Shown one piece after another: positions 23,099 to 64,000 of a stretch of DNA of 64,000 nt (position 1 is its first letter; every line of letters starts with the position of its first letter). The notes beneath the pieces were generated by a model. The model searched no databases. It was not told the DNA's origin and saw only the letters and a program-made list of their open reading frames with translations. The translations under genes were made by a program, and so were the position numbers. Source of the stretch: a virus; the IMG/VR virus record IMGVR_UViG_3300035698_028866, positions 1 through 64,000 of that record; one strand, written 5' to 3'.

Positions 23099-23120
23099 TT
23101 GCCTAGTCCCCTATATTGGT
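23098..23120. repeat. 23-bp direct repeat, copy 2 (3' end of the beta' C-half gene)
   Basis: attgcctagtcccctatattggt. Confidence 0.95.
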
Positions 23121-25436
23121 TATCTTTCCACTCAATACGATTTGCGGAATTGTTGCTGAAGCTCTTGTTGGGTCACTAAAGGTCTGACCAGAATGTAACG
23201 CGTCCATGAGAGATCCTTTAAGGTAGTATCCCCCCAGGCGCTCCAGCCAGTCAGAAGAATGCTGAAGAGCTTCTACGGCAGGACGCATTTCAGGATCAAA
23301 GGGTGGGGGGACATTGTGCACCGCGATTTCCTTTACGTTGTGCCCCACCATCTCTTTTACCATGCTCGGTGTCAGTCTAGTTCCAATAGTGTAATGCATG
23401 ATGGGTTTCTCCAGCCATGTATCCACAGCTCGCTTCGGATCCATAAGCTTGAAACCTTCTCGAGGCTTATAGGACCTAGCTATCTGAGAATACTCCACAA
23501 TGTCCCCCGGCACCCACTCCCCAAAGCGTGAATTCATCCTCACGTGGTTTATGACCCCTCTTGCCAGATATTCTATGTTCCTCTTGTTGTGTGATATCCC
23601 TGAGTCTTTGAGAGCCTTGGAGAAGATGTCAACGAATAGCTTCCTGCCTTCCCCAATACCCCTATAACGAGCAAGCTCCGCAGGATTGGGTATACCTTCG
23701 CTCAGAACAGTTCCCCTTTCCACGTGCTGCCCCGATCTTACGTTTACGGCTAGACCTGGGGCTATATGGTATTCCTGCGTCCCTACGAGGATATTCTTGC
23801 CTCCTGCTGGTAGATCCAGTATGTCTTTTACGACACCGCCCTGAGAGGCAATGGCTGCACCCCCCGCAAAGCTCTTGGGAACGGTTATGAGCTGCTTCAC
23901 AAGCTCCAGCCCTGTTACTGTTCCTCGGGATACGTGCTTGCTCGCGATAGCTGACTGAGTTAATGGTTCTGAATTACTAACTACCAAACCATTGGCCAAA
24001 AGAAAAAGATGGTCAGGATGATTTACATAGATGTCGTATGTTTTCTTTTTTCCTACACTCTCTGCTGAAATTCTGCAACAGCGATCAATACTATCAAAAG
24101 AGTCCGGCAGAACAGCCTGAAACCTATCAAGATTGTTAGCTAAGCAGAAACTAACAGGACGCTTTGCAACAAGCTCTCCATATGTTTTTTCGCTCTGAGT
24201 CCTATTTGACCTTACGTCTATCGTAGAAAGTATTTTATGATCAGGTGTAGATATTACTTCCAGCAGACACTCTCTAGTAGATTTTCCTGTCCCTCTTCGG
24301 AAGATAGTTTTGATGCACTCCTTTTCTCCGCTGTAACCTGTCTTTAGCACCTCTACTGGTTTAATCTTTCCGTGTTTGCTACATCCGAGAATCCTATCAC
24401 TTAAGGCTATGTCCTGTATTTTTTTCTCGCTCCCATCAGCCATCTGTATTAGAGTGTCTTCGGCCAAACAAAGGCTCTGGGTCGCGGATACTCCTGGGAA
24501 AGAACCTAAGGCAGGATACGTCCCTGTCTCTCTATAGCCTGCAGCCTGTTGAGATATCCCATCCTCTAGCATAGAAGTAGTAGGGGAGTATACGAGGATC
24601 CTTTCGTGCTTTCTTGCAATACGCTTCATGAGACGAGGGGTAAGTACTTCACCAGCCTTTGCAATGTCATCAATGTCTTCTGCAAGCACGGCCCCCTCAT
24701 AATCAGGATCCTTAGGGTCTATGGGAAGACCTATTCCCTTCTCTGGTTCCAGCTGCCCTGTAACTCTAAGTCTAAGAACGGAGCGGAAGAGCTGATTAGC
24801 CAGATACCCAGCCTCGGGAGTTGCAAGCTTCAAAGCGGTGTAGCCTTTTCGTGTTCCATATCCCGTAGTCCAATACTCTTCCGGAGTCAAACCTTCCGCA
24901 TACCCATGGAGAATTGGAACGGGTAGAGGTTTGTCATCATTCCCTACACCATAGATAGGTCCTGCCACGAGATCCAAAGTCTTACCAATTGAGCCTCTGC
25001 TTCCGCTCTTTACCTGGAGGAGGAAAGATGTGTCTCCCTTGTCCTTGACCAGTCTATCCTCCAGAACTCCACGCGAGAGCTCAAGAAGCTTTACTATCCT
25101 ACTGCGCTTTTCCTCGGGTGAAGAGTCACTTGCCACAACGGCGTCTACCTGTTGCTTTAGCTGCTCCCGGATCTCCACCATCTGCTTGGAGAGGGAGAAC
25201 GACTTAGGCGTAAGAGAGCTAACACCACCATACTCCTTTGCGACGTGCTCTCCAAAAAGGTGAAGCCTTCGGAGAATAGCGGCATAGTCTTCAGGGTGAG
25301 CCTTAGCCACTTCGTACATGATCAGCTGAATCTTGTTCTTGTCTATACCCCCAGAGTCAACAAGGTAATGGACATCCTTAGGGAGAATGTCTTTCAGTAT
25401 GAGCTTGCCTATTGTGGTGTTTACTACATTACCCAT
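23103..25436 (-). CDS. rpoC: Phage RNA polymerase beta'-like subunit, C-terminal half, with intein
   Basis: TTIGK, SGSRGS, bridge helix EGLTPEEYW..GTRKG..KLATPEAGYL, trigger loop QSL|SEPLTQ..SKH. Confidence 0.92.
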   Translation of the reverse strand: MGNVVNTTIGKLILKDILPKDVHYLVDSGGIDKNKIQLIMYEVAKAHPEDYAAILRRLHLFGEHVAKEYGGVSSLTPKSFSLSKQMVEIREQLKQQVDAVVASDSSPEEKRSRIVKLLELSRGVLEDRLVKDKGDTSFLLQVKSGSRGSIGKTLDLVAGPIYGVGNDDKPLPVPILHGYAEGLTPEEYWTTGYGTRKGYTALKLATPEAGYLANQLFRSVLRLRVTGQLEPEKGIGLPIDPKDPDYEGAVLAEDIDDIAKAGEVLTPRLMKRIARKHERILVYSPTTSMLEDGISQQAAGYRETGTYPALGSFPGVSATQSLCLAEDTLIQMADGSEKKIQDIALSDRILGCSKHGKIKPVEVLKTGYSGEKECIKTIFRRGTGKSTRECLLEVISTPDHKILSTIDVRSNRTQSEKTYGELVAKRPVSFCLANNLDRFQAVLPDSFDSIDRCCRISAESVGKKKTYDIYVNHPDHLFLLANGLVVSNSEPLTQSAIASKHVSRGTVTGLELVKQLITVPKSFAGGAAIASQGGVVKDILDLPAGGKNILVGTQEYHIAPGLAVNVRSGQHVERGTVLSEGIPNPAELARYRGIGEGRKLFVDIFSKALKDSGISHNKRNIEYLARGVINHVRMNSRFGEWVPGDIVEYSQIARSYKPREGFKLMDPKRAVDTWLEKPIMHYTIGTRLTPSMVKEMVGHNVKEIAVHNVPPPFDPEMRPAVEALQHSSDWLERLGGYYLKGSLMDALHSGQTFSDPTRASATIPQIVLSGKITNIGD
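23973..24470 (-). mobile_element. Mini-intein (166 aa) in the trigger-loop region
   Basis: Starts CLAEDTLIQMADG, block B TPDH, ends TYDIYV..HLFLLANGLVVSN, +1 Ser. Confidence 0.92.
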
Positions 25437-55847: not shown

Positions 55848-55876
55848 ATTATAGTGTTTACGTGCTAAAGTATCAA
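55848..55876 (-). promoter_or_regulatory. Sigma70-type promoter
   Basis: TTGATA-17 nt-TATAAT; the -35 box contains the TGA stop of the RNAP gene. Confidence 0.75.
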
Positions 55877-58800
55877 GTCCCAAGAATTCTCACCGGCTGA
55901 TCCACTCGTATCTTTCCCTGTCTATAAGACTTAAGAGCGGCATCACTTGTTGCAAAGCTTCGAGCTGGACCTTTCTTGCGCCCAGAAGCAAGATACACTC
56001 CCTGAAGGAATTCTGCAAGGGGAAGATACATAACATTGAAGTCCTTCGGGTTAAAAAGGTTACGAGACGGAAGCATCTTATAGGAGTCTTTCACAGCTGC
56101 CTCTGACGCAGGCACATGAAACATCATTGTATTTGACAGGATTAGCCCTTCAATGTTCATAAATGTCTCATAACCAGGCACAGTCAAGTCATAGCCAGTT
56201 TCTTGTTTTCCTGTCTCTTCGTATCCTACTACACGATCCCATAGGATGTCTTCGTTCTGCGTCATAGCTTTGAAGTTGTTCCAATAGGAGCCTTCAACCA
56301 TAGAGTCCATTTCCTCTATGATCGCTAGCGCTATGTCCCTACGCATATGCCCTGCTGTTATTGCGCTCGACAGCCGGAAGTAAAGACTCTTCATGCCAGT
56401 ACCTGCTAGGCTACGAAGATACCTAGCGAACGCATTACTCATCGGAATAACATCCTTGTCTGAGTATTTGCGCACAGTTCCTTTCTCCAAAGCCTCCTTG
56501 TTGCTCTTACAGCAAAGATCAGGATTAAGAGTCTTAAGACCAGATGTGTAGATGTTAAGACACCAAAAAGGAAGTCCCTTTGGAGTCTTAGTGGTTGTTA
56601 CTCTTGATCCAACAGATAAGCTACGAAGCAGATTCTGTATCTCTCTAATGAGCTGTAATGACTTGCTCGTGTAGTTAGCCATAAGCTGTGGACTTTTTCT
56701 GATCTTCTCATTACACAGAGATACGGAACCGTCTGTGTCAATAAGCCCCTCTACGAGACCTAAGCGGAAATCTCTAGGTGTTAAGAGGTAGAACGAAGGC
56801 AGGTGTTTGTTTTCAGCTCCTTTACCTATAAGCCCTTCCAGGAAATCTGCAAACTCGCTGCTGCTTACGACGTATTTTTCACTCTTTCCATATGAAGTCT
56901 GCCCTGACACAATGTGACCAACATGGGGATCGTCCTTAAACACAGCAGCTAAAGACTCTTTGAACCGCTCCACAATACCTGGTTGCAGTGCAGAAAAACA
57001 TACCGAGCCATTCAACTGGCCATTATGATAGGTATTCCAACCGTCACCTATTAGGGCACCAAGCAAGTAACCAAACTGCCTGTCAAGAGCAACTGTCTCA
57101 CGCAGCCTGTTGTTGTGGCCAGTAGGAATCTCTGTTATCGCTACTGGAAGCTCTGAAGCACCCTGAGCTCTTGGGACATACATTCCTACAGCTTCAGCCG
57201 GACGAAAGCGATTCATCTGATAATCAGCAGGGTCTAATCCGTATACAGCTCTTGGGTCGTCATCGCTGAATATCTGTCTTCCGGAGGCTAAGTTGATTAG
57301 AACTATCTCTTTGTCTTCATGCACAGACCAATGGGAGACAGCGGCCAAAACAACCTTCTTGGCTTTCTCATCATAGGCTAAGACCTTTGTGCCATTAACA
57401 GCCTCGTACAGGGTAATGTGTTCCTTCTGTCCGACTGGTTTCTCCCGATGAGGAAAGTCCTTCAAATCACAGTAGAAGAAAGTATGTCCCTTTGCCCCAA
57501 ACAGTCCTGTCTTAAATCGTGCTGCCATCTTTGCGTCTCCAGAAAAAGGTTTAGTGTCTGAAGACGTATTAGAACCAATCTTGTTGGGCAAATCAAGGCC
57601 AATTTCGACAATACCATCATTTTTGGAAATAAATACACTAAGCTCGCTATTTTTGGTTTGTAGTAAGTCGTTATCAGCAGCGAAGATAACACTACCAATC
57701 TGTTTATCTCCGTCAAAATCTCCACCGATCGCTTTCGTAATAGCTGGTGGGATTTCCAAAGTCTCCCCTTTAGTAAGAAGAGGAAAGGCAGACATCATAC
57801 CAAACTTGTGAAGTGTAGGTGCTCGGTTGATGATGACGGGGCGCTCCTTTATAACCCTCAAGAGTGCGCTTCGAGCCTGTTTAGATTTCTCCTCTACCTC
57901 TTTTGTCGCTGTGGTTGGAGCTATCCCTGTTCGAACCAGCTCGCGCAGAATAAACGGTCTATAGACTTTCCATGCGGTTCTCTCAGGGAGGCCCACCTGA
58001 TCAATTGTTAAGTTGCTATTGGGAGTAATTACTGCTAAACCTGACGTATCGACGGAACGCCCAAGGATTCTCCCCTGAATAATAGAGAACTTGGGAGAGC
58101 TTCCGAAAATAGAATGAAGGATTCCTTTCAGCTGCTTGTCCTGGGACTCTTTGCTAATAGGATCTCCAAATCCCATGATAGCCTTCACCCCATCATAGAT
58201 CTGAGACTTGGCTTTTTCCAGCTGATCCTCGGGGACTTCTCCCTTACTATCATTGTATTCCTTGACCAGATCGAATAGGTCCTTGTAGAGGTAGTTAACA
58301 TCGCTGATAACCGGAGTCCCTCTAACCTGCGTAATAGGACGTGCTGCTGGAGGAAGGACAGGAACTTTGGATAGCATGAGCTCTTCAGGAGCTATATCAT
58401 ATTTATCGAGTACCTGAAGGAACTTGAGCTCCTGAGCAGCCTTGTTCTTTTTGCTCACAGGGAGAGAGTCTATTCCATGACGAAGTTCAGTAAGTCTCTT
58501 TTTAACGTTCAGGTTCTTGAGAGCTTTGTAGAGTGCTCCTGGTCCACTTTGTCCGCGGAGCTCTTCCTTTCCTATAAAGACATTCTTCACGTCCTTTATC
58601 TTAAGGCCAAGAAGAACCGCAATAGGTTTTTCTATCGAAGGATTGGGGACAGGCATAGGAAGATTTATATGCCCCCAACGATCCCCACTGGCTCCACCCA
58701 GAGTAGGAGACATAAAGCCTCCCTCTACAGGCTTGAGGGTCTTCTGATCGAGCATGAGGGAGTTCACAATGGCTCCCGAAGAGACCGACTCAGTATCCTT

Positions 58801-61800
58801 GTCCGTCATTGGGAAGATATGAAGCTGGCCCCCTTTTCGCTGTACGTTTATCCCCGCACCCTTCAGCAGGTCAAAGAACTTCTGATGGACAAAAGGAATC
58901 CTGGGAAGTGAAGGCATGCGGCCCATTTTGAAGGCGTTCCACCAGTCTTCGTTCTTCTGGCCTCTTACGAGATGAGCGTCAGCTAAGACATCAATCGCCC
59001 CATGAGAAATAAATGCAGCCAACGCCTGTGAGCCTATCTTCTTGGCTGAGTCCGTGCCGGCGCGAGAAGGCGCTTCTTCAGAAGTATACTCAGCAAGACT
59101 TCGACCCTTAGCTTTCGCTTCTCCCATGTGATACAGCTTATACGCATAGGTCTGGCCCGTCCAAACATCCGGGATTACCTTCCCTGTCTCTGGGTCAGTA
59201 ATGTTCTCTGTAGCCTTTATGCCACTCTTCTGTGCCTCTCCAAGAGCAAACTCCATGATGCTTCCGTCTAAAAACGCGGGGACCTTGTATGGATTTCCTC
59301 TCTTCTTCGCCACCTTACCCAGAAGCATTGCCGCCGCCATAGAAGGATTGCCTCGAGTCTGAATGGAAAGGGGTGAGATCAAAAGCTCAAAAACCTTGCC
59401 TGAGGCATCCCTAGGCATCTTCTCATCCGGGATGACATCAGCAATGATAGAGTTACCAGACCAAAGAGTTCGTCCGTTCCGTCTAGTTAACAAGAGACCT
59501 CCACCTATGTCAACACAGTAAACCTTACCAGAATAAAGTTTTTTGTAGTATCGAAGCTTTTTCCTCGTTTCTATGTGTGTCTTACTCAAACTAAAATCTA
59601 AACGATAGATAGAGTATCCGGCACAACGTCCAGTTTTGGCTGTCTCCATGCTCAGAGAACAGTAAATTCCAAGAGACGCTGAAAGCTGCTGGAAATCGTC
59701 AGCCAGTTGTTTGGATACCGTGTCGTATCTTCCACCTTTATCTGAATACCAATATCCATCACCTTTGATCATGGTCTCCCAAAGAATTCTACGAATACTA
59801 ATGGATGTATTAAAAATCTCCTTTGGGATATGCTTGTCATATGCGCCCTTTAGATCCTGTAGGGCAAAGAATAACTGCTTAGAGTGTATTGCATACTTTA
59901 TCTCGTCACGATTGTGCTGAGAATATGTGTTATATCTCCAAGGGAGCTTTTTAAGCAACGCCTCAATCTCCCTACAATTCTGAGGATTAACTCTTGGAGT
60001 TTGACTAATTACTATCGTATATCCCCGACTATCTGAAATATTACCTTCAGTTATGACCCAGCCTAAAAATTCAGCCCAAAGCTCCATAGAAATTGCCTGA
60101 ACACTGTCTCCGTTTTGACGTTCTGATTGGCGTCCTGGAGGCATAGGAATTTCCTTGTGTGTTAGAGGAGACTCCGACTCATAACCCCAACCCGCGACAC
60201 TGTAGTCATAGCCAAGCTTTTCGTGGCATTCTTCCGCAGGAATGAACTCGTAATTGTCTCTACCACAACGTTGAGCATGCATTCTGTGGTTAGGAGTTAC
60301 GAGATAATCCAGACAGCCCCCACGGTAACCATACATTTCGCCCTCATAGTCATAGCTAAGATGCTCTTTTGGAGTGACAAATACCATCTTGTCATCTACG
60401 ACGGTCGCAACCCTGGAATCCTCATGCATATCCTTAAAAAGCTTCCAGCCACATTCAGTCAATATTTCAGTCTGGTCGTCGTGGCATTTGTGACCAAATC
60501 TTAAAGCCAGCTTATCAGCTTCTTCTGCAGGAGCCTTAGCCTTCACAAAAACTCTCCACCCACTCGGAGAAACCTGAGCATCAGTTACTACGCCCGGCCA
60601 GGCATGCTTCCATGTCACAGAAGAATCAGAGAATTGCCCCAAACCCTTACGCAGCTGATAGTAGAACGGTTTCTTCTCCCTCTCAGAAATAGAGAGTATC
60701 AACGGATCTCCCTCACTTACCTCAGTCCCGGGAAGGATCAAACCTTTATCTCCAATCCTGTCGAACTGCTTTCTGTTGTAATGGCTAGGGAAAGTGCTGA
60801 GGAACTTCTTCTTACCAACGAACACTCCCGGGTCTTTTGGAAGGTCATGGGAAAACAGGTGGATCGACGTCATCTTCTTAGCAGCACTCTCGCTTATTGC
60901 TGCAGCATCCTCGTATGTCTTGCTATAGGGAAGAAGCGCAACCTTAAGGTTCACACCCAGAGCGAGAGTTCCCTTATCCGAGGTAAAATTGGATGAAGCT
61001 ACAAGGTCTCCTTCTCGAACCACATCTCCAACGGCAACTCGAGCAGTCTGGTCTAGGCTAGTCTTGAGGTTGAAGGGATGATCCTTGTAGAGTTCTATCG
61101 TGTGATTTTTACCGTTGGCATCCTTGAGTATTATCTCTTCGTCGGAAACTTTGGCAATACGTCCCGAAACAGGTGCAGATATAGCCCCTGCTCGAGTTCC
61201 AAGAAACTCCTCATAGCTCCTCTTGGTTCCCGGCATAAGAGACTGAACGAGAGGAGCTTCGCGATATTCCAGAGGGAGTGCCTGCTGTGCCATCTTCGAC
61301 GCCATCAAGAGCCTTCCCTGATTGATACCAGAAATCATAGGTGTAAGCTCACTGGCAAGCGAGAACATCTGATTTTTATCAGGAAGGTAATAGTCTACAG
61401 ATTTCCCAGAAACATATGCCTGTTCGAAACCGTGGACGATAGCACTTTGAAGAGGCTTGTTTTCGTTGCCGGGGAAACCAATGATAACATTCTGAAGGTC
61501 CATATTACTAAGATACTCTTTTTTCCCTGTTTTGGCATTGATCATGGGCGCGAAGATCTCTCCCCTGTCATTCGTTTTCACGTTGTTAGCTGCGCGCATG
61601 TCAACACCCACGGTTGTGCTTTCACTCGTGCGGGACGGATCTATAAAACCCAAATAGCTAGGCTGGACAAACCTGGCTTCTTCTGGGATGCCCTGCTTCG
61701 AAGCTATGCCACCCTCTCCCATTCTAGTTAGCCTGAAAAGCTGATCCGTTATCTCTATGGGATTGATTTCAGAGAGAGGCTGAGCAAGACCACTTTTGAA

Positions 61801-64000
61801 CAGGAAGGACGCAATGAGTGGATCAAACATACCCCCAGGAACCCTATCCAGTTTACGGCGATTTGTAGCCTTCCACAGAAGCTTCCTAGCATTACCACCC
61901 CTGTCTTTTGCAAGAGCGTATCTGAGCAGGGAAGGCGGGGTATAGATCTTCTGAGCGTAAAGAGCATCCCTGGGGCTATAACGAGCCTCGCCGCGCCCTA
62001 ACTGGAGAAGGCGTGAGGACGCGGCAAGAAGAAGATTAGGAGTCACATTGCTTTCAGCCTTTCCCAGTGTTCGAAAGGTTATGTCCGGGTCAATATGATG
62101 TAAGGAGAAATACGACGTCAGCTTCTCCTGTGCATCTGCTGTATCAGTAGATCCAAAAAGACGATTCATCACACGAGAGAGAGCCCTTGGGTCGGATTTT
62201 TCCTTGTTGGTCTTATAGAGCTCATCCCCCCATGCGGTTTTCAGTTCATCATCTGAGATACCCAATGTCTGAAGTATAGGGAAAAGCTTCTGGTGCGCCT
62301 GTCCTATTCCAAGACGGAAAACACCTTCTTCTGGAGAGAAAAAGACTCTAAAGCCCCTTCCACCTTCTACGTTGAATGATGCTTCGATATCCCCTGACTT
62401 TGCTCTACGTGTGTAAACACCAGGACGGAGCCTCATCTGATTACAGTTTGATACTAGTATACCGTTGGCAACATAATTATGATTATCCTCTATGCGAATA
62501 TTGTATACAATCTTGCTAGCCTCCCAAGTTTTACCCTCTTTCCACTTAAATGAGGTAGGTATTTCTTCTAACTCGTTGTGCATCTCAGTATCTACCCTAA
62601 GAGCTTCAACCTTGGAACCAGCTACCTTGAGCGTATTTTCCCATGTTTCTACTCCTACTGCCTCTTCAGGAACAGTTTCTGACCTGAGAAGTGTTCGCAC
62701 AGCTCCAGAAGACCCAAACCTGTATCTAGCAGTTTTAGATATGCACGCTTGGCTAGACTCACGTTTAAGTAGACAAAAATTACATATCTCCCTATGTTTT
62801 GAAATTTCTTGGCCGCATTTACACACGCCAGTATTGGGCCTATTAAGAAGTTTATAGTGAAGACATTTTGGAAGATAGGGAGCTACTATTCTAAGCAGTT
62901 TTTGAGTAGCCTTTGCATGTAGAATAAGCACTAACCCTGTTCTACTTTTAGCTATATGAGAAGTCAGCCCCCATCTTTTTTCTATCCACCCTTTTAAAAG
63001 TTCTATGCCTTCTTTTGAGAAACCTTGCGTACAGAATATGGCCTCTGGCGTGTTATAGGGAGTTTGACGTCTACAAGATCCATCATCTCCAAACCAGAAA
63101 GCTAGACCCCTTTCGTCTATCTTATCCAACCACTCCTTACTTATAGTCTTTATTGAATTAGGATAGCATAATTGACTGGCTCTTATAATCTCACTGTGTT
63201 GTCTTAGTCTAAAATAAAAACTGACCTTAGAATTAATCACATGGCCTAAGCTTTCAGAATAACGACTACTCGCCGGCACGCGCTTAAAGCTCTGCATTAA
63301 GGGACTCAATATGTCCCGCTTTAACTGTAAATATTCTTTTTGCTTTATTGAATGACTGCAAGCCCACAAACCCGTGGACTGATCTATAGTTGCGTCCCCA
63401 AGTAAAGAACCATAAATGACCTGCTTTTGGGTCTCGGACAACTGTTTGCGAACTGCTGTCACGGTGGTGGCATGCTGTAAGTCTTTTTTTTCGCCAGTGG
63501 GGCTTACAACTTGATGAGTTCTAGTTCCCCAAAGAGTGCTGGGTTGACTAGTGCTTCCAGGCAAAAAAGCACCATTATTCTTAAATTTTGTATGCCCTAT
63601 ACCTTCCGGGGAATAATTTTTATACCAGCCTGTAATATGTTTAAGCTCAAAACACTCCTTCTTAAAATTGTAGGTCCATACTCGAATTTTTTTCTTTTCC
63701 TTAACAATCTTTCCTATAGAAATCATACCCTTCTCGGTCCATATCTGTGTGGACGTATGAAGACAGATGGTGTAATCATTCCCGGAGTAGATCAATGTCC
63801 CTCTATCGGTAAGATAAGGGACATGGGCCAGAATAGAGGTCTTTCGGTCTATGACGTCTTCTGTGGCAGCATCCCGGAGAACAAGATCACCATGCAGGGG
63901 ATAGAAGAGTGTCTGCCCCTTTGTTATGGCTTTGTACTCGTCCCTCTTACCGTATTTCCGCGGCTTGTATTTCAAGTTTTCCGCACTGAGAGTATACTGT
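55873..64000 (-). CDS. rpoBC: Phage RNA polymerase: beta fused to N-terminal half of beta', three inteins; 5'-partial
   Basis: beta motifs PYLTDRGT, NPIEI, GFIDPSRTSES, MASKMAQQA, YEDA, ADKLALRFGHK, YKLYH, KKIG; beta' motifs WGHINL, PVLPPAARP, NRAPTLH, GDFDGD; frame is open upstream of 63975 to the window edge. Confidence 0.95.
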   Translation of the reverse strand, partial: QYTLSAENLKYKPRKYGKRDEYKAITKGQTLFYPLHGDLVLRDAATEDVIDRKTSILAHVPYLTDRGTLIYSGNDYTICLHTSTQIWTEKGMISIGKIVKEKKKIRVWTYNFKKECFELKHITGWYKNYSPEGIGHTKFKNNGAFLPGSTSQPSTLWGTRTHQVVSPTGEKKDLQHATTVTAVRKQLSETQKQVIYGSLLGDATIDQSTGLWACSHSIKQKEYLQLKRDILSPLMQSFKRVPASSRYSESLGHVINSKVSFYFRLRQHSEIIRASQLCYPNSIKTISKEWLDKIDERGLAFWFGDDGSCRRQTPYNTPEAIFCTQGFSKEGIELLKGWIEKRWGLTSHIAKSRTGLVLILHAKATQKLLRIVAPYLPKCLHYKLLNRPNTGVCKCGQEISKHREICNFCLLKRESSQACISKTARYRFGSSGAVRTLLRSETVPEEAVGVETWENTLKVAGSKVEALRVDTEMHNELEEIPTSFKWKEGKTWEASKIVYNIRIEDNHNYVANGILVSNCNQMRLRPGVYTRRAKSGDIEASFNVEGGRGFRVFFSPEEGVFRLGIGQAHQKLFPILQTLGISDDELKTAWGDELYKTNKEKSDPRALSRVMNRLFGSTDTADAQEKLTSYFSLHHIDPDITFRTLGKAESNVTPNLLLAASSRLLQLGRGEARYSPRDALYAQKIYTPPSLLRYALAKDRGGNARKLLWKATNRRKLDRVPGGMFDPLIASFLFKSGLAQPLSEINPIEITDQLFRLTRMGEGGIASKQGIPEEARFVQPSYLGFIDPSRTSESTTVGVDMRAANNVKTNDRGEIFAPMINAKTGKKEYLSNMDLQNVIIGFPGNENKPLQSAIVHGFEQAYVSGKSVDYYLPDKNQMFSLASELTPMISGINQGRLLMASKMAQQALPLEYREAPLVQSLMPGTKRSYEEFLGTRAGAISAPVSGRIAKVSDEEIILKDANGKNHTIELYKDHPFNLKTSLDQTARVAVGDVVREGDLVASSNFTSDKGTLALGVNLKVALLPYSKTYEDAAAISESAAKKMTSIHLFSHDLPKDPGVFVGKKKFLSTFPSHYNRKQFDRIGDKGLILPGTEVSEGDPLILSISEREKKPFYYQLRKGLGQFSDSSVTWKHAWPGVVTDAQVSPSGWRVFVKAKAPAEEADKLALRFGHKCHDDQTEILTECGWKLFKDMHEDSRVATVVDDKMVFVTPKEHLSYDYEGEMYGYRGGCLDYLVTPNHRMHAQRCGRDNYEFIPAEECHEKLGYDYSVAGWGYESESPLTHKEIPMPPGRQSERQNGDSVQAISMELWAEFLGWVITEGNISDSRGYTIVISQTPRVNPQNCREIEALLKKLPWRYNTYSQHNRDEIKYAIHSKQLFFALQDLKGAYDKHIPKEIFNTSISIRRILWETMIKGDGYWYSDKGGRYDTVSKQLADDFQQLSASLGIYCSLSMETAKTGRCAGYSIYRLDFSLSKTHIETRKKLRYYKKLYSGKVYCVDIGGGLLLTRRNGRTLWSGNSIIADVIPDEKMPRDASGKVFELLISPLSIQTRGNPSMAAAMLLGKVAKKRGNPYKVPAFLDGSIMEFALGEAQKSGIKATENITDPETGKVIPDVWTGQTYAYKLYHMGEAKAKGRSLAEYTSEEAPSRAGTDSAKKIGSQALAAFISHGAIDVLADAHLVRGQKNEDWWNAFKMGRMPSLPRIPFVHQKFFDLLKGAGINVQRKGGQLHIFPMTDKDTESVSSGAIVNSLMLDQKTLKPVEGGFMSPTLGGASGDRWGHINLPMPVPNPSIEKPIAVLLGLKIKDVKNVFIGKEELRGQSGPGALYKALKNLNVKKRLTELRHGIDSLPVSKKNKAAQELKFLQVLDKYDIAPEELMLSKVPVLPPAARPITQVRGTPVISDVNYLYKDLFDLVKEYNDSKGEVPEDQLEKAKSQIYDGVKAIMGFGDPISKESQDKQLKGILHSIFGSSPKFSIIQGRILGRSVDTSGLAVITPNSNLTIDQVGLPERTAWKVYRPFILRELVRTGIAPTTATKEVEEKSKQARSALLRVIKERPVIINRAPTLHKFGMMSAFPLLTKGETLEIPPAITKAIGGDFDGDKQIGSVIFAADNDLLQTKNSELSVFISKNDGIVEIGLDLPNKIGSNTSSDTKPFSGDAKMAARFKTGLFGAKGHTFFYCDLKDFPHREKPVGQKEHITLYEAVNGTKVLAYDEKAKKVVLAAVSHWSVHEDKEIVLINLASGRQIFSDDDPRAVYGLDPADYQMNRFRPAEAVGMYVPRAQGASELPVAITEIPTGHNNRLRETVALDRQFGYLLGALIGDGWNTYHNGQLNGSVCFSALQPGIVERFKESLAAVFKDDPHVGHIVSGQTSYGKSEKYVVSSSEFADFLEGLIGKGAENKHLPSFYLLTPRDFRLGLVEGLIDTDGSVSLCNEKIRKSPQLMANYTSKSLQLIREIQNLLRSLSVGSRVTTTKTPKGLPFWCLNIYTSGLKTLNPDLCCKSNKEALEKGTVRKYSDKDVIPMSNAFARYLRSLAGTGMKSLYFRLSSAITAGHMRRDIALAIIEEMDSMVEGSYWNNFKAMTQNEDILWDRVVGYEETGKQETGYDLTVPGYETFMNIEGLILSNTMMFHVPASEAAVKDSYKMLPSRNLFNPKDFNVMYLPLAEFLQGVYLASGRKKGPARSFATSDAALKSYRQGKIRVDQPVRILGT
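56131..57705 (-). mobile_element. Atypical intein (about 525 aa) with LAGLIDADG endonuclease, directly after DFDGD
   Basis: Ends GYDLTVPGYETFMNIEGLILSN, +1 Thr; GYLLGALIGDG and GLIDTDGS; N-terminal boundary inferred from restoring DFDGD-TMMFHVP. Confidence 0.85.
59452..60486 (-). mobile_element. Intein (345 aa) with LAGLIDADG endonuclease in the beta catalytic-lysine motif
   Basis: Starts CHDDQTEILT, TPNH, FLGWVITEG, MIKGDG, ends RRNGRTLWSGN, +1 Ser. Confidence 0.93.
62446..63765 (-). mobile_element. Intein (440 aa) with LAGLIDADG endonuclease in the beta N-terminal region
   Basis: Starts CLHTSTQIWT, TRTH, YGSLLGDA, FWFGDDGS, ends HNYVANGILVSN, +1 Cys. Confidence 0.93.

Follow-up and report, generated by a model that had tools for sequence, protein, structure and literature searches.

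We report an intein that lacks a nucleophile at its first residue and interrupts the catalytic loop of a viral RNA polymerase (RNAP), encoded in a DNA stretch of 64,000 nucleotides (positions 1 to 64,000 of IMG/VR record IMGVR_UViG_3300035698_028866; hereafter, the window). The intein, Lys2099 to Asn2623 of its host protein, is 525 amino acids (aa) long and consists of a Hint splicing domain with a nested LAGLIDADG endonuclease (56131..57705, minus strand, as are all features of the window described below). It belongs to a family of elements inserted at the same site, group A, which, judged by its conserved residues, is on balance likely to comprise genuine LAGLIDADG inteins that splice without a residue-1 nucleophile, in a class-2-like manner, and that derive from an oxyester class 1 ancestor. 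Three mechanistic classes of inteins are recognised, and the members studied need Cys, Ser or Thr at residue 1, Cys at +1 or Cys at block F position 4 (F:4), plus a block-B histidine. Group A is without all of these, yet it is strongly conserved, apparently mobile, and located in the polymerase's indispensable loop.

The insert occupies a site that is uninterrupted in relatives

The translated insert region (55873-63999) reads ...AIGGDFDGD/KQIGSVIFAADND...SGRQIFSDDDPRAVYG...GYDLTVPGYETFMNIEGLILSN/TMMFHVPASE, with slashes marking the junctions. The insert starts as GGDFDGD/KQIGSVIF (junction codons gat AAA cag). Specifically, the codons of the catalytic DFDGD (aa 2094-2098), whose last Asp is intein residue −1, are positioned at 57706..57720, and they are followed by intein residues 1-2, Lys-Gln (AAA CAG, 57700..57705), with no nucleophile at position 1. 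In intein-free relatives, the last Asp is separated from the M/L-x-x-H-x-P strand by a single residue, giving DFDGD-A-MQFHVP in L011, DFDGD-A-LTIHLP in L012 and L013, DNDGD-Q-LNINVP in L003, and GGDFDGD-T-VMYHVP in P0036, the closest extein relative (72% identity beside the insertion site). The excised unit therefore runs from Lys1 to Asn525, with Thr as residue +1 (codon 56128-56130), in agreement with an earlier sequence-only reading of the window that had placed the start of the insert at the Lys right after DFDGD.

The insert has the attributes of an intein. It has a Hint fold with meeting ends, interrupts a conserved host protein in frame at a position where homologues are continuous, ends in Asn525 followed by Thr+1, and matches the Pfam families Intein_splicing and LAGLIDADG_3. 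The endonuclease domain (56266..57138, limits approximate) contains two motifs with acidic residues, G-D-G-W (in LIGDGW, 57037-57054) and D-T-D-G-S (56725-56739), has an I-DmoI-like fold and matches PF14528 (E=2.7e-9); it is a predicted homing endonuclease.

Standard class 1 splicing from a displaced start, either Ser5 of KQIGSV or Cys79 of FFYCDL, with the extra residues left in the loop, is very improbable. A Ser and a Cys do occur at these places in the window's sequence. Position 5 is variable (S13, T9, H6, A5, I5, R4 and others among 52 family sequences), as is position 79 among members, the intein-free homologues have no extra residues, and structural superposition places intein residue 1 at Lys1, plus or minus one residue. 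The alternative offered by the sequence-only reading, splicing from Ser5 with KQIG left behind, fails on the same grounds.

Contigs of salt-lake metagenomes reproduce the features of the insert with zero differences: the N-junction in X1, X2 and X3, block B in X2 and X4 and partly in X1, and the C-junction in X1 and X3, with the proviso that one of the matching runs may be the source sample. An assembly error is ruled out by these identical contigs, which cover each feature. The stretch 55900-57900 is identical, at least partly, in contigs of several salt-lake metagenome runs of 2017-2019, which suggests a persistent phage population in this habitat. RNA evidence was sought among the matching sequencing runs, and no RNA run was listed there.

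Group A is a conserved family with a free first residue

We define group A as the window's intein type, a large monophyletic family confined to the DFDGD/T site of phage multisubunit RNAP beta'. The window protein alone, used as a query against viral contigs, found no close relatives, and profile-based scans were needed. A word-indexed protein search with the N-extein end and the first 230 intein residues as query returned 37 long polymerase chains, most spanning the whole query, and profile-guided scans of viral and metagenome contigs supplied further DNA loci. In addition, when 1.84 billion cluster representatives were searched with a hidden Markov model, 554 proteins scored E<=1e-30, a count that was inspected in its best 150 only (all <1e-109) and may include the sister clade, group B, described below. 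Group A comprises at least 128 distinct sequences of the same element at the same site (wider set), of which 52 formed the first set; the latter share 30-42% identity with the window's intein. When the insert was compared by tblastn with 50,697 cultured-phage records, only distant endonuclease and intein matches (22-27% identity) and no group A member came up. Full-text literature searches, whose coverage leaves out subscription journals, found no paper on an intein at DFDGD or on a nucleophile-less phage polymerase intein, and group A is apparently an undescribed family.

Residue 1 is nearly unconstrained in group A. Among 128 members it is Q50, D16, E14, A12, L7, C6, K5, F4, N4, S4, Y2, G2, H1 and M1, so that Cys, Ser or Thr is present in only 10 of the 128, and the entropy of position 1 in the 52-sequence set is 3.1 bits. 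Residue 1 differs even in close sisters, being Asn in P0005 and Tyr in P0009, and Glu in L164 and Leu in P0015. By contrast, the junction itself is fixed: the insert follows D-x-D-G-D in 129 of the 129 hits where the automated parse found the junction, with Asp at −1 in all, while 14 further hits have no DxDGD within 330 aa, roughly half of them being split C-terminal intein fragments (IntC) and the rest unresolved.

Position 2 is Gln in 79 of 128 members. It is absent in about five of the seven members with Cys or Ser at residue 1, against seven of the 45 others (hand tally, 52-sequence set). We make no claim that Gln2 stands in for the lost nucleophile, as position 2 is Cys in one subclade and variable elsewhere. 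This subclade of 14 members (P0050, P0067, P0091, P0092, P0096, P0101, P0103, P0108, P0112, P0116, P0118, P0153, P0178 and P0020) begins x-C-I-N-Q... with unchanged C-extein spacing. Cys2 was rejected as its splicing start, since the C-extein holds the same T-x-x-x-H-x-P spacing.

Past position 2, the 52 sequences share the motifs M-[S/T/A]-A-R-F, L-x-D-F-P-[HR] and [WY]-S-x-H, a block B of [ST]-D-[DN]-D-[PE]-R-A-V-Y-G, a block F of G-Y-D-L-T-V-P-G-x-E-T-F, and a block G of L-S-N followed by Thr. The window's counterparts are L-K-D-F-P-H (residues 81-86, 57448..57465), a motif common to groups A and B; W-S-V-H (residues 126-129, 57319..57330), of which Ser127 and His129 are near-invariant in both clades (51/52 and 52/52 in group A); a block B equivalent without histidine, S-D-D-D-P-R-A-V-Y-G (residues 147-156, 57238..57267); a block F of G-Y-D-L-T-V-P-G-Y-E-T-F (56161..56196), with Asp at F:4 and Glu where many inteins carry His; and a block G of G-L-I-L-S-N followed by Thr+1 (56128..56148). 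D148, R152, V154, G504, Y505, D506, E513, S524, N525 and Thr+1 are invariant in all 52, and Asn525 and Thr+1 are unvarying wherever scored in the wider set as well. The register of block B is ambiguous by one: taking Ser147 as B:7, as in the sequence-only reading, gives Asp150 at B:10, whereas anchoring on the turn glycine (B:1 = Gly142) gives Asp148 at B:7 and Pro151 at B:10. That reading's other observations, a block B of SDDDPRAVY without TxxH, an Asp at F:4 and an S-N/T end, agree with the family's motifs, and block B contains no histidine in either register.

These features thus form a family trait under selection rather than a one-off lesion, and, by the sequence comparisons, group A is best read as a real, intact and mobile intein family and is not a damaged allele. 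A dead allele, which had been named beforehand as a refuting outcome, is ruled out by the size of the family and by the single-copy gene of a complete genome. More generally, a dead allele, a pseudogene or an assembly error is scarcely credible as an explanation: nothing beyond the missing residues speaks for it, whereas the 2708-aa frame is open, the same features recur in at least 128 independent sequences, the sole catalytic gene of a complete genome bears the intein, and the salt-lake contigs repeat the junctions and block B unchanged.

Group A residues fit none of the three known intein classes

Class 1 inteins have Cys, Ser or Thr at residue 1; class 2 inteins are KlbA orthologues with Ala1, Ser G:6 and Cys+1; and class 3 inteins have Trp B:12, Cys F:4 and Thr G:5 (PMC4031507; PMC5222942). 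By its residues, group A fits none of the three. Against class 1 stand Lys1 at residue 1 and the lack of a Thr B:7/His B:10 pair (S-D-D-D-P-R). With class 2, the window's intein has in common the missing residue-1 nucleophile (Lys1) and Ser524-Asn525 at G:6-G:7, but residue 1 is variable, residue +1 is Thr, His B:10 is lacking, and the host is RNAP beta'. The class 3 triplet is absent, as B:12 is Arg152 or Ala153, F:4 is Asp506 (52/52) and G:5 is Leu523. The exclusion of classes 2 and 3 by the sequence-only reading is accordingly upheld, there being no Cys F:4, Trp B:12, Thr G:5, Cys+1 or conserved Ala1.

The likeness to class 2 (Methanocaldococcus jannaschii KlbA and its orthologues) extends to a dispensable Cys, Ser or Thr at residue 1, Ser G:6-Asn G:7, Asp F:4 and, in the scheme that we propose, direct formation of the block-G branched intermediate. 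However, class 2 inteins have a conserved Ala1, Cys+1 and a required His B:10 (PMC4031507), whereas group A has a free residue 1, Thr+1 and no block-B His, and the host protein and insertion site differ. KlbA is not among the sequence or fold matches of the insert. With class 3 (mycobacteriophage Bethlehem DnaB, Msm DnaB-1 and Dra Snf2), group A shares a dispensable residue-1 nucleophile, monophyly, the Ser or Thr that is common at +1, and a proposed phage origin; but class 3 needs its triplet and His B:10 (PMC5222942), where group A has Arg or Ala, Asp and Leu at the triplet positions. Bacterial intein-like (BIL) domains have no +1 nucleophile, whereas group A keeps an unvarying Thr+1.

A further parallel is offered by cysteine-less, or oxyester, inteins. 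Pasch et al. (PMC10189870) found an NX-motif histidine that is peculiar to cysteine-less Ser1 inteins and close enough to residue 1 for a hydrogen bond; in PolB16 OarG this histidine is critical and the block-B histidine is dispensable, although the block-B His never varies across 58 Ser1 inteins and Arg or Lys precedes the NX His there (PMC10189870). In the window's intein, His129 aligns with the 'RH' of PI-PkoII, that is, with the NX-motif histidine, and it is invariant in group A, while Ser1 and the preceding Arg or Lys are absent (Val here, variable in the family). Group A thus shares with the oxyester inteins (PolB16 OarG, Aes123 PolB1 and PI-PkoII) the NX histidine and Thr+1, and also an atypical split site with a very short N-terminal intein fragment (IntN; 12-32 aa in the split forms of this family). 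The oxyester inteins, however, keep Ser1 as an essential nucleophile, and group A has neither Ser1 nor the block-B His.

The NX histidine bears on a class-3-like route, in which an internal invariant Ser or Thr would attack the Asp(−1)-Lys1 bond, form an internal branched ester and hand the N-extein to Thr+1. Ser127 of W-S-x-H, which shares a strand face with His129 and lies two positions N-terminal to it, is the strongest candidate; Ser/Thr147, Thr508, Thr514 and Ser524 are further ones. The near-invariance of Ser127 and His129 in both groups, the alignment of His129 with a histidine that is in hydrogen-bonding distance of residue 1 in PolB16, and the class 3 precedent for an internal nucleophile in place of residue 1 make such a route worth considering. 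Nevertheless, we regard it as unlikely: the class 3 position F:4 is Asp here, and Ser127 is just as conserved in group B, where Ser1 persists, and so is not an innovation of group A.

Group B retains the residues that group A has lost

Group B, the sister clade, comprises 11 contiguous members (L031, L033, L070, L077, L079, L081, L082, L085, P0034, P0037 and P0038) and seven split loci (L004-L009 and L014), for four of which IntC genes were located (L015-L018). The two groups have in common the insertion site, L-x-D-F-P, [WYF]-S-x-H, the endonuclease and the split point. In group B, the intein invariably starts with Ser, Thr or Cys; block B reads S-x-D-H in 9 of the 11 contiguous members and T-D-D-H in the split ones; block F reads x-W-T-F; the C-terminus is [Q/W/Y]-Asp in all; and Ser127 and His129 are present in 10 and 11 of the 11. 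Group A differs in its free residue 1, DDD[PE]RAVYG, xETF and Ser-Asn end.

In a maximum-likelihood tree built without the first residues, groups A and B each form one side of a branch with a Shimodaira-Hasegawa-like approximate likelihood-ratio test (SH-aLRT) value of 99. The members with Cys or Ser at residue 1 are scattered within group A; the tree needs seven changes to account for them, which is no improvement on shuffled labels. The loss of constraint on residue 1 coincides with the loss of the block-B His and with the switch from a terminal Asp to Ser-Asn. Group A probably descended from class 1 inteins of the cysteine-less 'oxyester' type that occupied this site; an ancestor of this type would already have depended on the NX histidine, and group A would then have given up Ser1.

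The terminal Asp of group B also bears on an extein-assisted route, in which Asp −1, the third Asp of DFDGD, would cyclise onto its own carbonyl, forming a cyclic anhydride and breaking the Asp/Lys1 bond; the activated acyl donor so formed would be captured by Thr+1, or by its amine once Asn cyclisation has freed it, and the peptide bond would be re-formed. Group B would already cleave beside a terminal Asp (G:7), as inteins that end in Asp are known to do (reference 80 in PMC4031507), the junction follows Asp in 129 of 129 cases with residue 1 unconstrained, and an acidic/Arg cluster stands in place of the histidines in group A. We nonetheless consider this route quite improbable, as it is pure inference with no precedent at an N-junction, it could leave a catalytic residue in an isoAsp linkage, and the restriction to a single site may merely reflect homing specificity.

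Two further observations concern Asp-ending relatives. The split members (L004-L009 and L014; extein identity 33-35%) have Ser1, T-D-D-H, Tyr-Asp/Thr and an IntN of 26-32 aa, and in the four genomes where it was located, the IntC with the beta' remainder lies about 50 kb or more away in the same genome. An Asp-ending relative, L080:1534-3036, appears inserted two residues further downstream (DFDGD-AM/SVRGD...VVWD/SVYLP) and would mark a second insertion point close by in this loop.

The predicted fold places Lys1 where solved inteins have their nucleophile

We modelled the intein with AlphaFold2 from a 35-sequence alignment (mean predicted local distance difference test score, pLDDT, 85.8; predicted template modelling score, pTM, 0.85; in model numbering, Asp−1 is 8, Lys1 is 9 and Asn525 is 533). 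An alignment of full-length hits to the insert (A1), which scattered the first ~60 residues, was left out of modelling, and DNA-referenced sub-ranges (A2-A4) were used. The model matches TliVMA (7qsu; Z 20.8, root-mean-square deviation (rmsd) 5.9 Å, 344 residues), PI-PkoII (2cw7; Z 20.4, rmsd 6.6 Å, 396 residues) and the cysteine-less Aes123 PolB1 intein (9hth; Z 16.7, rmsd 2.6 Å, 165 residues), and its endonuclease part matches I-DmoI and I-Tsp061I (Z 15-17.6; I-Tsp061I, Z 17.6). On the mini-inteins 4e2t and 5o9i, model residues 9..533 are placed on chain residues 1 to the end.

These superpositions align chain residue 1 with model residues 8-9 (Asp−1/Lys1) and the last intein residue with model residue 533 (Asn525). 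In the model, Lys1 is therefore in the place of Cys1 or Ser1 of solved inteins, within one residue, and Asn525 is at their end. The LAGLIDADG inteins of known structure (TliVMA, 7qss/7qsu; PI-PkoII, 2cw7; PI-PfuI, 1dq3; and PI-SceI) have the same two-domain architecture (Z 20.8, 20.4 and 16.6), but all belong to class 1, having a block-B His together with Cys1 or Ser1, and they are 15-18% identical to the window's intein. The variable linker of residues 38-70 (57496..57594), the breakpoint of the natural split forms, is predicted to be disordered (pLDDT <50, model residues 46-78).

Split forms and a conserved internal start site

Natural split forms occur within the family. L032 reads DFDGD/FQVSRVIVRFKRNIDVPFKYRLDF and L167 reads DFDGD/LQINSVFVRFYDKSSEGQKIK, each then ending in a stop codon, the former with an overlapping IntC gene. 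In two split group A loci, L172 and L173, the IntN is only 12-13 aa long (CQWGHVF...; CQWGHVFVCVRNS and CQWGHVFLLIKS, each followed by a stop codon), which is among the shortest natural IntN fragments known to us; the corresponding IntC (L045 and L048) is endonuclease-less, ~230 aa long, fused to a ~90-aa C-extein, and encoded elsewhere on the same contig. At least six representatives are stand-alone IntC chains starting M-x-x-R (P0079, P0085, P0107, P0117, P0119 and P0124), and a few more start slightly further in.

The contiguous genes carry a start signal at the same point. The linker of residues 38-70 varies in length and contains an internal start where the IntC genes of split forms begin. 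In the window, a Shine-Dalgarno-like (SD-like) GGAG (57537-57540) is separated by an 8-nucleotide (nt) spacer from an ATG (57526-57528) that encodes Met60, the start of M-A-A-R-F (57526..57540 in all). Besides the window, the signal was noted in L023-L030, L035, L075, L076 and L141-L166. Among 27 group A loci with DNA, 25 have ATG or GTG within three codons of the aligned start column. Where this column holds Val, the codon is GTG in six of six cases, against a GTG share of 26% among Val codons (P=3e-4). Furthermore, an SD-like tetramer lies 5-18 nt upstream of 21 of the 25 starts, compared with 66 of the 547 other ATG or GTG codons that lie in frame within these inserts (12%; Fisher P=5e-15). 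The SD-like motif usually takes the form G-GAG-G across codon boundaries, amid surrounding residues that differ, and the signal is therefore conserved at the nucleotide level; the true split forms use the same SD and start signal. Given this conserved internal ribosome-binding site and start codon, the IntC part with the C-extein is probably also translated as a separate chain, even from contiguous genes. The conserved internal start signal in contiguous group A genes is new here, and it adds a layer of gene expression that needs control in any experiment on a group A intein.

Excision appears necessary, and ligation is favoured over cleavage alone

In G009, a 100%-complete genome of 172.9 kb, the sole Rpb1_2/DFDGD locus bears a group A intein, and the window's own contig likewise has a single such locus. 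From the established architecture of RNAP, we expect that a polymerase could not catalyse with a domain of 525 residues still attached to its third catalytic Asp, and since the only catalytic loop is split by the intein, the latter probably must still come out. Residue +1 is Thr in group A but Thr, Ala or Gln in intein-free exteins; that Thr+1 is kept, although neither Asn cyclisation nor the extein needs it, points to ligation over cleavage alone. The element also behaves, from the sequences, as a mobile insertion, because it has kept its LAGLIDADG motifs and is missing from P0036, the closest extein relative. The non-canonical splicing route put forward in the sequence-only reading is strengthened by this comparative evidence, namely family-wide conservation, a free residue 1 and the single-copy locus in G009.

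We weighed this against the absence of ligation, in which the protein would be cleaved at the C-junction or at both junctions, or the element would stay, giving a nicked or non-covalent polymerase, maybe with a separate IntC and C-extein. The missing N-terminal nucleophile and block-B His, the conserved internal ribosome-binding site and start, the common occurrence of natural split forms, and the tolerance of these polymerases to a split ~85 aa downstream are all in keeping with it. Yet it seems an unlikely outcome in view of the unvarying Thr+1, of a 525-aa domain on a Mg-binding Asp that should, as we infer, block the active centre, and of a present/absent pattern among close exteins as expected for a mobile intein.

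A proposed splicing route for group A

With the residue-1 nucleophile and the block-B histidine lost, the standard N-O acyl shift at residue 1 is impossible. Our leading guess is that Thr+1 attacks the Asp(−1)-Lys1 amide in a class-2-like manner, so that the N-extein would go directly to Thr+1 and form the usual branched ester. The attack could be aided by the invariant NX-motif His129 (with Ser127), the D148-D149-D150/R152 acidic cluster, Asp506 (F:4) and Glu513. Asn525 would then cyclise, and an O-to-N shift would yield DFDGD-TMMFHVP.

Several points weigh against this scheme. As a nucleophile, Thr is poorly suited to attacking an amide directly. Class 2 splicing has been proven only for inteins that have Cys+1 and depend on His B:10, a residue missing from group A (PMC4031507). 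The model leaves the conserved M-x-A-R-F motif in its disordered region, and the internal start site could point to a trans reaction outside the proposed scheme. In addition, the window's contig is 42% complete, so a second polymerase gene is possible in this phage. A bolder and more tentative idea is that group A constitutes a fourth splicing class, without cysteine, a residue-1 nucleophile or block-B/F/G histidines, which would be activated by an anhydride of the host's own catalytic Asp −1 or by an internal Ser127-His129 (NX) dyad, perhaps in trans, with the full-length chain reacting with an IntC and C-extein chain that is initiated separately.

If group A does splice, an N-junction amide can be activated in an all-oxygen, histidine-poor active site. 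This would be of mechanistic interest and would matter for cysteine-free, redox-insensitive ligation tools, including the split forms whose N-fragments are 12-13 residues long. Should it not splice, a polymerase that works with a broken or occupied catalytic loop would be equally surprising.

Host gene and polymerase layout

The viral contig that contains the window is 80.5 kb long, with a completeness estimate of 42%. The host gene (55873..63999, stop codon 55873-55875) encodes RNAP beta fused to beta'-N, with Pfam matches to Rpb2_3, Rpb2_6, Rpb1_1 and Rpb1_2; its frame spans 2708 aa within the window, where the 5' end is open, and 2773 aa in the full contig. Three inteins lie in this one frame, at aa 79-518, 1172-1516 and 2099-2623. 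The first (62446-63765; C...SN/C, block B T-R-T-H) and the second (59452-60486; C...GN/S, block B T-P-N-H) look like ordinary class 1 inteins, because they have Cys1 and a T-x-x-H block B, and they provide an internal contrast to the third.

The C-extein of the third intein is the final 85 aa of the beta'-N part (TMMFHVP...RILGT, 55876..56130). The polymerase is re-partitioned in that the beta and beta'-N fusion stops ~85 aa past DFDGD, and a separate 781-aa frame ~30 kb away (23103-25436, minus strand), with weak Rpb1_5 matches, is probably beta'-C.

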